NCBI GenBank assembly: GCA_028714495.1
Contig: JAQTMH010000002.1
Coordinates: 7,219-71,218 of the forward strand
Source of the DNA: Patescibacteria group bacterium
Lineage (GTDB): Bacteria > Patescibacteriota > Patescibacteriia > JAHIZJ01
Direction of reading: 5' to 3'
DNA length: 64,000 nucleotides
Part shown: one piece after another, positions 34,667 to 61,923 of the stretch
How positions within the stretch are numbered: the stretch's first letter is position 1
Layout: each line of letters starts with the position of its first letter
Position numbers and translations under genes: made by a program
The notes under the pieces: generated by a model
What the model was told of the DNA's origin: nothing
What the model saw: the letters and a program-made list of their open reading frames with translations, nothing else
Databases searched by the model: none

Positions 34667-34688
34667 ACACCTTTTAGTTAAAAGGTGT
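34667..34688. terminator. Palindromic hairpin ACACCTTTTAGTTAAAAGGTGT overlapping the stop of the ArsR-like gene (terminator family)
   Basis: Same palindrome family as 24508 and 35036. Confidence 0.4.
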
Positions 34689-34953
34689 CTTGATTTATAT
34701 GATCATTTACAGCAAAACTCTTTGAGATGTGAAAATTAACTTTTTGCCCATCGCGTTTTCCCTCAATGATGTGGCAGCGTAAAAGCAAATGTAGATGCTT
34801 CGACACCGCCGATGGCCTGATACCAAGTTTTTCCACCAACTCTTTTCCGGTATGGCCTCGCTGAGAGAGCAAATGCAGGACCCAAAGACGCCGTTCATTC
34901 CCAAGTGCGCGATAAAACAAGGCTGTTTTTCGCAATTGTGGATGTGTGTGCAT
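34678..34953 (-). CDS. ArsR/SmtB family transcriptional regulator
   Basis: LGNERRLWVLHLLSQRGHTGKELVEKLGIRPSAVSKHLHLL is the ArsR HTH. Confidence 0.75.
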   Translation of the reverse strand: MHTHPQLRKTALFYRALGNERRLWVLHLLSQRGHTGKELVEKLGIRPSAVSKHLHLLLRCHIIEGKRDGQKVNFHISKSFAVNDHINQDTF

Positions 34954-50654: not shown

Positions 50655-51833
50655 TTAGGACGCCATCGGCCATTCATCAGCGTCTGTCTGATCAGCCGGA
50701 TTATCCGTCTGACCAAATTCATTCGCTGACTGACCAAAGAGCATTTCACCGGCGATTTCCTTCAAGGTGGCCAGGACGCGATCATGGCCAATCCCTGATT
50801 CCTGGGTTCTTGTGTAATCAACCGCCCTGATTACCACCTCGAAATCACCAACCGAATTCCACTCCTTTAGGTGACAGGCAAGGCGATCCAGTTCAGCCGG
50901 ATCAGCCAGAGCGCTTTCAACCAGTATCTGATCCAGTACGCGCCAATCACCTACAACCGCTACCAGTTTGTCCGCCTGTCTCTCCCAGAAGCGGCGGCGA
51001 GCCTCCTGGACCATATGGTAGGCAATCCAGAAAAGCGTCGTGTACACCGGGTCGGGATCCCTGCGCCTGAGCCAGTCAAACATTATCTGCGTGATCTCAT
51101 GGGCCTTGACTAGGCGCTTGAGTGGAGGCTTTTTGCCCCAGCCACGCAGGATTTCGACCAAGCGGTGATGATCCTGCGGATCACCCGGCAAATCGCACGC
51201 GTAGGCGATGTCTGAAAGCACCCTCCAACCGCCCACATCAACCGCGATGTTATGCAGGCAGTCTCCCGGACTGACCGCGGCTGAAGCCAATTGATTCTGG
51301 AGGCGGCTTGTGAACAACGGCTGAGTAGTTTCAGCAGGGTTATGCCCCTTCCCGCCTAAATCAGGAAGTTCAGTCTGTCTGTCAGGTTCAGCGGTTTGGT
51401 CAATCGACGACCCTTTCAGCTCATGAGTTGGGCCTGACCGTTCCAGATTGCCCTGATTGTGACCGATGGCGCGGAACAACGCGGCATTCACAATCAGCCG
51501 GAACAGCGCTGGATTTACTGACCGAGGAATGAAACCGTCGGCTCCGCACTGTCTCGCTGCTTTACGGCACATCGCGTGGTTCTGACCGGCCGGGATATTA
51601 GCCATCAGATAAATCGGGGGCCGCAAAATCAGCCTAAGCTTCTTGCTTTCCTGGACCAGGCGCAGACCAGGCGATTCATCAGATTCGGCTAAGACTAGAT
51701 CGGGCTGAAAGCAAGAGATCATAGTCAGGGCTGAGGCCAAATCGGACGCGCCGCAGACCTCAACCCCAGCCAGCAGATCGGAGTAACTAGCCAAACGACC
51801 CAGATTGATGTCAAATACCAGGATTCGTTCCAT
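50655..51833 (-). CDS. Response-regulator receiver (REC-like) domain protein with large uncharacterised C-terminal domain
   Basis: N-terminal RILVFDIN...PDLVLAES...PIYLMANIP...GADGFIPRSV follows the CheY-like (beta-alpha)5 pattern. The phospho-acceptor position is atypical. G+C-rich. Confidence 0.45.
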   Translation of the reverse strand: MERILVFDINLGRLASYSDLLAGVEVCGASDLASALTMISCFQPDLVLAESDESPGLRLVQESKKLRLILRPPIYLMANIPAGQNHAMCRKAARQCGADGFIPRSVNPALFRLIVNAALFRAIGHNQGNLERSGPTHELKGSSIDQTAEPDRQTELPDLGGKGHNPAETTQPLFTSRLQNQLASAAVSPGDCLHNIAVDVGGWRVLSDIAYACDLPGDPQDHHRLVEILRGWGKKPPLKRLVKAHEITQIMFDWLRRRDPDPVYTTLFWIAYHMVQEARRRFWERQADKLVAVVGDWRVLDQILVESALADPAELDRLACHLKEWNSVGDFEVVIRAVDYTRTQESGIGHDRVLATLKEIAGEMLFGQSANEFGQTDNPADQTDADEWPMAS

Positions 51834-52118
51834 GACCCAACCTCCTCTTTGTGACTCATAATAAAAAGAGCCTCATTAGAGGAGGCGTCATTTCTAGGGA
51901 CTAATCCTTATTGTCCCTGAGCTTTGTAACTATAACCTTGATGCCGGTTACGCTACTGGCTCCCGATGAACTGTACCCCTTAGCTAAAGCTATGGGGTAA
52001 AGCGTCCAAATTCAGTTCATCGTTCGACGCCTCATCATTACTACCCTAGTGTTTCCAGGATAGTAAAAAAACATTAGCATATTGTTTTCAGAATGTCAAG
52101 CCCCTGCGGATACTGCCC

Positions 52119-58106: not shown

Positions 58107-58204
58107 TTAGTTTTGTGATGGTAAAAAAAATATCGGGCAGACCCGACCGGGACAATAATGATAATACCACAGTCGCAAACTTTGTCAAGCCCAATTAAGA
58201 GATA

Positions 58205-58237
58205 TCAAAAAAACACAAAAGCCGGATTACTCCGGCT
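58205..58237 (-). terminator. Intrinsic terminator (AGCCGGAGUAAUCCGGCU plus UUUGUGUUUUUUU) downstream of the metallothionein-like gene
   Basis: Seen directly. About 30 nt past the stop at 58270. Confidence 0.5.
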
Positions 58238-58269
58238 CTCGTGTTATATCTGCTTTCTGTTATTCTTTC

Positions 58270-58371
58270 GGCGCGCATTTGCAGGAACAATCTTTATCGC
58301 ATTTGCAATTTTCGACAGTCTCCCCGCACCCGCAAGGGCACATTTCTTTATCATTTTCCATATTTTTTCCG
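58270..58371 (-). CDS. Metallothionein-like Cys-rich peptide, 33 aa: MENDKEMCPCGCGETVENCKCDKDCSCKCAPKE
   Basis: 8 Cys in CxC/CKC/CSCKC arrangement. Promoter TTGAAA-N17-TATTAT at 58402-58430 (minus). Terminator downstream. The ORF-track plus ORF 58158..58382 is its antisense. Confidence 0.4.
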
Positions 58372-58401
58372 CTTACTTGTAAGGTAATTACATAATACAC
58401 C

Positions 58402-58430
58402 ATTTTGGCTTTTGTTTCAAGTCCCACTTC
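58402..58430 (-). promoter_or_regulatory. Sigma70-like promoter TTGAAA-N17-TATTAT for the metallothionein-like gene
   Basis: Seen directly on the reverse complement. Confidence 0.45.
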
Positions 58431-58502: not shown

Positions 58503-58619
58503 CTATTCCTTTTTCTTGTTCGCCTTGGCCAAAAGATAAATAAACGTACCCAGGAAAACTAGAAACAGTCCCGTTCCAATTGGCGAGCCCCAGCCTAAAA
58601 CTGAATAAATGTCGCTCAT
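58503..58619 (-). CDS. Small hydrophobic protein, 38 aa (MSDIYSVLGWGSPIGTGLFLVFLGTFIYLLAKANKKKE), co-transcribed downstream of the MacB-type ABC pair
   Basis: Strong RBS AGGAGG 8 nt upstream. One TM helix. Not in the ORF track (<60 aa). Confidence 0.4.
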   Translation of the reverse strand: MSDIYSVLGWGSPIGTGLFLVFLGTFIYLLAKANKKKE

Positions 58620-60747: not shown

Positions 60748-61923
60748 ATGCAAAGGACTAGCATGCAAGGAGTGGAGCGGGTGTACTGTGATGTCTGCAT
60801 CCACGCCCTAGTTGCGGCCTGGCGTGAACTGCTGGATTCACCAGCTAGCGAAACGCTCAGACATACCAAATACGGCAAGGGTGATACGCTGGGTCTGGAC
60901 GCAATCACCGAAATCATTATTCACGACCGGCTGTGTGACTTTGACCGCCATGCCATTCTGGTCACCGAGGAATTGGATGATGATGCCCGCGAGCGCTGGC
61001 CAACTGACGCTGAACCGATCCGGCAGCCGCTCATGTTCTTCTCTGACCCGACTGACCGATCCAGACAACTCAGAGAATACATCGAGACAATCAGCAGGGA
61101 AACGCCCATCAGAAGGCTCGGACTGCTCATGGGCCGGGACAAGGGCATCCAGGTCTGGGAAAGAATGTTCGAGAAACCGGCAATGATCACTGGAGCTACT
61201 TCTTCCATCACCTGCGTGCGCAAAGGCCAGATCATCTTCTCGGTCATTCTCAACATCGTCACCCAGACCATTTTCGTGGCGACTCCACTGGGCAATGTCG
61301 TGATGCGCCTGCCCCGGTTCGGTGATCCAGTCTGCGATCAAGTCGACCTGAACTATGTTCTGGGGCATGGCCGGCCACTGATTTTCCCGCCAGCTAAGAT
61401 CACCTGCCAACGGCCAGATGACTTCAAGCGTTTTGTTACCTTCCTCGGTAAAGAAGACTATGAGAAGAACTTTATTGACAGTATGGTCTTCGTTGAGAAT
61501 CCCGATGACTTTCTGCACCACACCCTACCTGGCGGACCGGCAAGAATCCTCTATCTCTCCGAGCTCCAGCGTGGCCATGGACCGATTGGCTTTATCATGG
61601 CCAATGGCGAAAAGATCGGCGAATGGATCCACTGGCTGGCCTTTGCCAAATTCGCCATGCGCGAGCACGGCGGCCACCAGCTCAGGATTTTCGAGATCGC
61701 CATTCCCCGACCCCATTACAAAGACGGCGTCCTGATGTCCACGGCTCCGGCTTACAGCATTTTCAGCCAGCTTGGTTCGACTGTCTATCTGGATGTCAGC
61801 CGGTTGCGGACCTTTGAGACACCGAGCCGCTTCCGCTCCATGCTCGTGGTAGCGCCGTTTGACAACGAACGGATCGCCCACATCATGCGGCAGCACTGCT
61901 ACCGCGAAATCGACCTGTCTTAG
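60748..61923 (+). CDS. Hypothetical protein, G+C-rich segment
   Basis: 391 aa. Strong RBS AAAGGAGGGGG 5 nt upstream of ATG. Minus-strand ORFs 60838..61521 and 60921..61295 are probable antisense artefacts. Confidence 0.5.
   Translation: MQRTSMQGVERVYCDVCIHALVAAWRELLDSPASETLRHTKYGKGDTLGLDAITEIIIHDRLCDFDRHAILVTEELDDDARERWPTDAEPIRQPLMFFSDPTDRSRQLREYIETISRETPIRRLGLLMGRDKGIQVWERMFEKPAMITGATSSITCVRKGQIIFSVILNIVTQTIFVATPLGNVVMRLPRFGDPVCDQVDLNYVLGHGRPLIFPPAKITCQRPDDFKRFVTFLGKEDYEKNFIDSMVFVENPDDFLHHTLPGGPARILYLSELQRGHGPIGFIMANGEKIGEWIHWLAFAKFAMREHGGHQLRIFEIAIPRPHYKDGVLMSTAPAYSIFSQLGSTVYLDVSRLRTFETPSRFRSMLVVAPFDNERIAHIMRQHCYREIDLS

Follow-up and report, generated by a model that had tools for sequence, protein, structure and literature searches.

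A 33-residue peptide with eight cysteines from a Patescibacteria genome, probably a metal-thiolate protein of an uncatalogued family

A 64,000-nucleotide stretch of a Patescibacteria genome (hereafter the window) contains a gene of 33 codons whose product, MENDKEMCPCGCGETVENCKCDKDCSCKCAPKE, is probably a cytoplasmic metal-thiolate protein, of miniature metallothionein or zinc-knuckle type, from an uncatalogued family. Thiolate binding of metal is the best-supported element of this proposal, judged by sequence comparison, and a metallothionein role in metal buffering appears plausible. Metal binding, its stoichiometry, the preferred metal, and the physiological role of the peptide are what we infer from the composition, conservation, and genomic settings described in the following.

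The peptide has a mass of about 3.6 kDa, and 8 of its 33 residues (24%) are Cys, whereas Phe, Trp, Tyr, and His are all absent. It has 8 acidic and 5 basic residues and only about 5 hydrophobic ones, so that no hydrophobic core is possible. The Cys are spaced as CxCxC-x6-CxC-x3-CxCxC, i.e., [1,1,6,1,3,1,1]. The N-terminus is charged (MENDKE), with 7 residues ahead of the first Cys and no signal sequence or leader, which suggests that the peptide stays in the cytoplasm and is not processed. At its C-terminal end it has a basic tail (KKK/APKK). The AF2 model of the peptide, which was built without metals, has no secondary structure and is of moderate confidence (pLDDT 77). An earlier note on this DNA had given the translation exactly but had placed the gene at 58371..58270, which is 10 nt too high; the positions of the gene and of the other features are given in the table.

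Positions of the peptide gene, of its signals, and of the other features discussed (window coordinates unless a locus is named)
Feature	Position	Strand	Description
Peptide gene (CDS)	58260..58361	-	33 codons plus TAA; ATG at 58361
Sigma-70-type promoter	58392..58420	-	TTGAAA 58420..58415, N17 spacer, TATTAT 58397..58392; 10/12 match
Predicted 5′ UTR	58362..58386	-	About 24 nt by promoter position; direct reading
Intrinsic terminator	58205..58245	-	15-bp stem 58245..58231/58226..58212, 7 GC pairs, 4-nt loop, T-run
typA promoter	58188..58161		Own site, 11/12 match, downstream of the peptide-gene terminator
Antisense 74-aa ORF	58158..58382		Artefact
38-aa ORF	58503-58619	-	MSDIYSVLGWGSPIGTGLFLVFLGTFIYLLAKANKKKE
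ArsR/SmtB-family regulator	34678-34953	-	NF033788, 58 bits (cut-off 55)
c-di-GMP-II riboswitch	51933-52043	-	58.9 bits (gathering score 53.5)
392-aa ORF	50655-51833	-	Directly downstream of the riboswitch
391-aa ORF	60748-61923	+	Strand opposite to its neighbours
Conserved block of ~40 nt	L082 2270-2365; L179 9900-10000; equivalent regions of L181, L182, L183		Abuts the -35 of the Mollicutes-like peptide gene
Open frame with the eight-Cys module	L100 1-2533		Contig Ga0169931_10001197 (42.9 kb); module at residues 144-177

The description of the locus as a self-contained Cys-rich gene is borne out. The TTGAAA-N17-TATTAT promoter is present and correctly placed for the ATG, with about 24 nt of 5′ UTR between them, the strong intrinsic terminator is present as a 15-bp stem with a T-run, and the gap between the TAA and the hairpin is 15 nt. 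Because typA has its own promoter past this terminator, the peptide gene can be transcribed alone; because the terminator scan found none between the upstream ABC genes and the peptide gene, read-through from these genes is also possible. The AT-rich spacer region has 2 promoter-like sites against 2.0 expected in shuffles, and since this count is at chance the site is supported by its position before the ATG and not by the count. Transcription from this promoter-like site is predicted, with a start point implied by its position and a transcript of about 180 nt. Of a Shine-Dalgarno sequence, the predicted 5′ UTR keeps a weak GGA remnant, with an A-run behind it (GCGGAAAAAAU ahead of the AUG), and it also has a short palindrome of 5-2-5 form, CTTAC-AA-GTAAG; in the Mollicutes-like homologues (see following) an AGGAG stands at the same distance from the ATG as the GGA does here. 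The neighbours are those named by the earlier note: TypA (TIGR01394, 854 bits) and, upstream on the same strand, a MacB-type ABC pair consisting of a MacB_PCD+FtsX permease and an ABC_tran ATPase. About 50 nt past the stop of the ATPase gene, and behind a strong AGGAGG ribosome-binding site, lies an ORF of 38 codons that has no family match; its product apparently crosses the membrane once and could serve the MacB-type system as a small subunit.

An open frame in which 26 codons include 8 or more for Cys is rare by chance: the window has one, against 0.02 per simulated sequence in 100 first-order Markov simulations of 64 kb. Homologues are few. A phmmer search of 1.84 billion representative proteins returned a sole true homologue (one cluster), the 36-aa protein P0001 (E = 7e-6), with 76% identity to the window peptide over 29 residues. 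Its 90%-identity cluster comprises six variants, and a profile search added a seventh, more divergent one (P0009). A padded query of 55 aa found no homologue, whereas the profile search recovered P0001 as well as P0009. Two more loci came from metagenome contigs, which were scanned at the DNA level with a degenerate pattern for M-C-P-C-G-C-G-[DE]. The first, L089, is the closest homologue, near-identical to the window peptide, and encodes ..KDKEMCPCGCGETVENCKCDKNCTCKCAPKK; in the second, L100, the module MCPCGCGEKSYNCTCPKWCTCRNPGMPCAPKK is an in-frame part of a reading frame that stays open for >843 aa.

The eight Cys are unchanged in each of the ten distinct sequences of the family. Residues M7, P9, G11, and G13 are also invariant, the MCPCGCG of L089 and L100 being imposed by the search pattern, and E14 and N18 are altered only in P0009. 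The spacer ahead of the last Cys has 1, 5, or 6 residues, and the N-terminal half is conserved beyond its Cys, as EMCPCGCGET.ENC.C. The possibility, raised in the earlier note, that relatives conserve only the nucleotide sequence is contradicted by the comparison of the window gene with L089, in which 16 codons are identical, 11 differ synonymously, and 4 nonsynonymously (dN 0.04, dS saturated). Among the Mollicutes-like variants there are likewise many third-base swaps (TGC/TGT, GGA/GGT, GAA/GAG), found at Cys, Gly, Glu, Pro, and Thr codons. At the DNA level, the window and L089 are similar over the ORF and an alignable terminator hairpin, and the similarity ends just beyond the hairpin. The antisense ORF of 74 aa had been dismissed as an artefact, rightly so, since it starts in DNA that is not homologous to L089 and its frame is interrupted there. 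Judging from these substitutions, the peptide gene is a real protein-coding gene, with a Cys pattern that is under strong purifying selection across lineages.

Of 5.8 billion clusters at 90% identity, two belong to the family; the two metagenome matches, which come from a single scan of metagenome contigs, complete its known extent. Exact-sequence look-ups gave no record for either the window peptide or the window TypA. Searches by tblastn gave no match among phage records and, among plasmid records, the zinc finger of an IS66 transposase only; DNA scans of viral contigs for CPCGCGE and for CGCG-x4-NCxC gave no family member. A literature search on metallothioneins and Patescibacteria found nothing relevant. 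The peptide belongs to a genuine, previously uncatalogued family of small proteins, which is very small, rare in current databases, and drawn from few samples.

Members of the family occur in Patescibacteria-like bacteria, in Mollicutes-like bacteria, and in one phage-like protein. The window belongs to the first group. No TypA of the GTDB species representatives is more than 70% identical to that of the window, and the close matches are all from Patescibacteria (CPR MAGs). Among 80 typA loci from GTDB species genomes, none has a small Cys-rich ORF within 5 kb; hence, the peptide gene is not a conserved partner of typA. In L089 (40% GC), the genes next in line code for an ECF sigma factor and for a membrane protein, in place of TypA.

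The seven 36-aa variants all come from one sequencing project. Their hosts (30% GC) read TGA as Trp, as is visible for example in MnmA, where 'MQN*D' has the stop at an expected Trp, and they have the domain DUF5452, which we take to be specific to Mycoplasma; both features point to Mollicutes-like hosts. Because TGA is a Trp codon in these genomes (genetic code 4), the JGI gene calls, made with code 11, are fragmented where the Logan calls are whole, and Pfam-based annotation of those contigs is misleading. This is seen in the JGI contigs L081, L178, and L180 set against the Logan contigs L082, L179, and L181; FeoB, for example, has 338 aa in the former calls and 733 aa in the latter. In every Mollicutes-like locus, the peptide gene lies between MgsA with an HxlR-family regulator on one side and RNase M5 with PRPP synthetase on the other; it points away from the first pair, and the second converges on it. 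The best NCBIfam matches of the HxlR-family regulator are the redox regulators RrpA/RrpB, under their cut-offs, and its position upstream gives a hint on how the peptide gene may be regulated. Abutting the -35 of the peptide gene in this clade is a conserved block of ~40 nt, ..GTATC..TAGGTATTATA.TAC....CATACTTGACA, which remains next to the peptide gene also at loci where YhhN stands between that gene and the HxlR regulator; the block is a candidate operator.

The whole of L100 (52% GC) shown in the table is one open frame, and the giant protein that it encodes has DUF6321 and an HExxH metalloprotease-like motif. It looks like a polyvalent-type protein of a phage or mobile element.

The conservation that the earlier note had proposed to test in relatives is thus found for the peptide and its eight Cys, but it does not extend to the order typA/MacB. 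The same note had taken this context as a hint of metal handling, an argument that fails because the neighbours differ in every lineage; neither a metal transporter nor a metal sensor is adjacent to the peptide gene in any of the three contexts. An ArsR/SmtB-family regulator is encoded in the window, 23 kb away from the peptide gene. Its promoter has a 9-2-9 palindrome, CACCTTTTA-AC-TAAAAGGTG, that is missing from the promoter of the peptide gene, and control of the latter by this regulator was rejected, as there is no shared operator.

Two further observations concern other parts of the window. A c-di-GMP-II riboswitch lies directly upstream of an ORF of 392 codons with no Pfam or NCBIfam match, which, by this arrangement, is predicted to be a c-di-GMP-controlled gene in a Patescibacteria-like genome. 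Another ORF, of 391 codons, stands in a slightly GC-richer stretch and likewise has no Pfam or NCBIfam match.

How far can the peptide be called a metallothionein? According to the operational definition of these proteins (PMC7558416, section 4.3), they are smaller than 10 kDa, have a high content of Cys in CxC-, CxxC-, or CC-type motifs with few or no aromatics or His, bind several d10 metal ions in metal-thiolate clusters, and respond to metals in their expression or are linked to metal sensors or transporters. The size and composition given previously agree with the first two points. For the third, which is the defining property, the invariant Cys and the metallothionein-derived tag with CPCGCG (PMC2229873) give only indirect support. 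As to the fourth, neither in the window nor at the homologue loci does a metal gene stand next to the peptide gene. The metallothionein-like character proposed by the earlier note therefore stands for composition (24% Cys, CxC motifs, no aromatics or His), but not as membership of a described bacterial metallothionein family, since no Pfam, NCBIfam, or PDB match was obtained. The profile and structure searches against such families that the note had proposed ended without result: scans of Pfam (including Metallothio_Pro, the model for bacterial metallothioneins) and of NCBIfam gave no match at E ≤ 10, sequence searches of the PDB with the peptide and with a nine-sequence profile gave 0 matches at E ≤ 10, SmtA included, and the fold search of the peptide model against the PDB gave no match.

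To our knowledge, only a small number of bacterial metallothioneins have been described, SmtA/BmtA and MymT among them. Like the peptide, SmtA/BmtA and MymT are small, cytoplasmic, Cys-rich proteins, but the peptide is shorter than either by about 20 residues. SmtA has a zinc-finger fold, His ligands, aromatic residues, and a Cys spacing of [1,2,1,15,3,10,4,1]. The peptide has neither His nor aromatics and does not match the Metallothio_Pro model; lacking both the profile match and the zinc-finger-like fold with Cys and His, it is not a member of the SmtA/BmtA family. No MymT-like protein was returned by the phmmer search of the 1.84 billion representative proteins. MymT of M. tuberculosis nonetheless provides a precedent of another sort, as it was likewise an overlooked, non-annotated Cys-rich ORF, of 4.9 kDa (PMC7558416).

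Another likeness is found outside bacteria. The copper metallothioneins of fungi and the β-domain of vertebrate metallothioneins are, as the peptide is, very small, about one-quarter Cys, free of aromatics and His, and built on a series of CxC. The Cys spacing of the Neurospora crassa copper metallothionein and of the vertebrate β-domain is CxC-x5-CxC-x3-CxC-x2-C, i.e., [1,5,1,3,1,2]. Set against it, the peptide family reads CxC-x6-CxC-x3-CxC-x(1/5/6)-C, which is similar but not identical, with spacers off by one, and serves here as a lead. The peptide differs further in having an extra N-terminal Cys (CxCxC) and bacterial hosts, and it has no detectable sequence or profile similarity to the metallothionein chains of the PDB or to the metallothionein models of Pfam. 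Homology and convergence cannot be told apart. Engineered proteins offer another parallel: the metal-binding tag GCGCPCGCG, for which a metallothionein motif is named as the source (PMC2229873, PMC9138774), contains the same CPCGCG as the peptide (PMC2229873).

The same motif leads to zinc fingers. The string (M)CPCGCG[DE] is, identically, the opening of the Cys/His element in zf-IS66 (PF13005) and DUF6527 (PF20137), and these knuckles make up most of the other matches of the motif scans. In those families, however, the motif is part of a larger folded domain in which a lone second half-site comes 20–40 residues later, whereas in the peptide another five Cys come in the 17 residues after CPCGCG. 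Membership of either family was considered and rejected, as there is no match to PF13005 or PF20137 beyond the shared motif. At loci L083–L177, the string occurs as the first knuckle of IS66 transposases, of DUF6527 proteins, and of one Peptidase_M15_3 protein; it seems to be a widespread three-Cys knuckle that has gone without description as such.

Hence, a different function has to be weighed, in which the peptide is a structural zinc mini-domain, that is, a free-standing knuckle or finger serving as an adaptor or small regulator for protein or nucleic acid, with zinc only holding the fold. This is a serious alternative because the eight-Cys module also occurs embedded in the giant multidomain protein of L100 and because CPCGCG opens known zinc fingers, where it forms the first knuckle. 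Eight Cys make exactly two Cys4 sites, the non-Cys positions P9, G11, and G13 are invariant with E14 and N18 nearly so, and the basic C-terminal tail also agrees with such a function. The conserved N-terminal half and the presence of the module in the giant protein fit a mini-domain at least as well as they fit a metal store. On the other hand, no zinc-finger model of Pfam was matched, no fold match was obtained, no conserved partner is found in the neighbourhoods, and a chain of 33 residues with eight Cys and without hydrophobic or aromatic residues offers little surface for specific recognition. On balance, a purely structural role is rather unlikely.

Far less probable is that the gene encodes a precursor, either of a modified Cys-rich peptide (a RiPP, e.g., of SCIFF/ranthipeptide type) or of an exported one, on which the MacB-type ABC system encoded upstream would act. 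The arrangement of the window would suit such a precursor: the MacB_PCD/FtsX permease, the ABC ATPase, and the 38-aa membrane ORF stand directly upstream on the same strand, and the scan found no terminator between the ABC genes and the peptide gene. Yet the ABC genes are missing beside most homologues (an unrelated ABC ATPase lies near one of them), the module is also found inside a large cytoplasmic-type protein, and the few charged residues ahead of the first Cys leave no leader or signal. Moreover, there is no radical-SAM or other maturase near the window gene and none common to the homologue loci. The link to peptide export that the earlier note had suggested falls for the same want of a leader, signal, or nearby maturase.

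The remaining proposals, which are that the ORF is a cysteine-sensing leader peptide or attenuator for typA, a noncoding RNA, or a chance frame, are very improbable and largely refuted: a short ORF rich in Cys codons does lie, with a terminator 15 nt on, directly upstream of typA, and the RNA is structured (folding z-score of −3.9), but typA has its own 11/12 promoter past the terminator, the downstream gene varies by lineage (typA, the ECF sigma factor, or the convergent RNase M5), the substitution pattern is protein-like, the folding signal is the terminator itself, a single hairpin with no alternative antiterminator pairing seen, and the Rfam scan of the whole window has no match at the locus.

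The metal-thiolate protein thus remains the preferred explanation. Eight invariant thiols within 22 residues, in a reducing cytoplasm, are best explained as metal ligands, and the metallothionein-like spacing, the metallothionein-derived tag containing CPCGCG, and the zinc fingers opening with it together single out metal-thiolate binding as the mechanism to which this analysis commits. The eight Cys would most probably fold the chain around bound metal ions; a pair of Zn(II) or Cd(II), each in a Cys4 site, several Cu(I), or a small cluster with bridging thiolates are possible. The most likely role of the peptide in the cell would then be to buffer or sequester thiophilic metals, or to scavenge oxidants or electrophiles. 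A metallothionein function of this kind agrees with the composition, with a gene that can be expressed on its own, and with a neighbour that resembles redox regulators.

A more ambitious extension is possible and is put forward only tentatively. The peptides may form a new family of prokaryotic metallothioneins, the shortest so far (33–36 aa with eight Cys), with a β-domain-like spacing, present in two unrelated groups with reduced genomes, and with its module borrowed by a giant phage-like protein. They would then be a minimal buffer of metals and redox for cells that lack most of the conventional metal homeostasis, placed under thiol-based control of HxlR/Rrp type in the code-4 Mollicutes-like clade.

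If the peptide were a zinc-stabilized mini-domain only, it would still represent a new family of small proteins, of modest interest. Small ORFs of this size are routinely missed by annotation, and the family would be another case for dedicated searches of genes below 40 aa. A conserved peptide of 33–36 residues with eight Cys, retained where most dispensable genes have been lost, would provide a minimal and synthesizable model of a metal-thiolate fold, and the family would give a first handle on metal and redox buffering in Patescibacteria and in uncultured Mollicutes.
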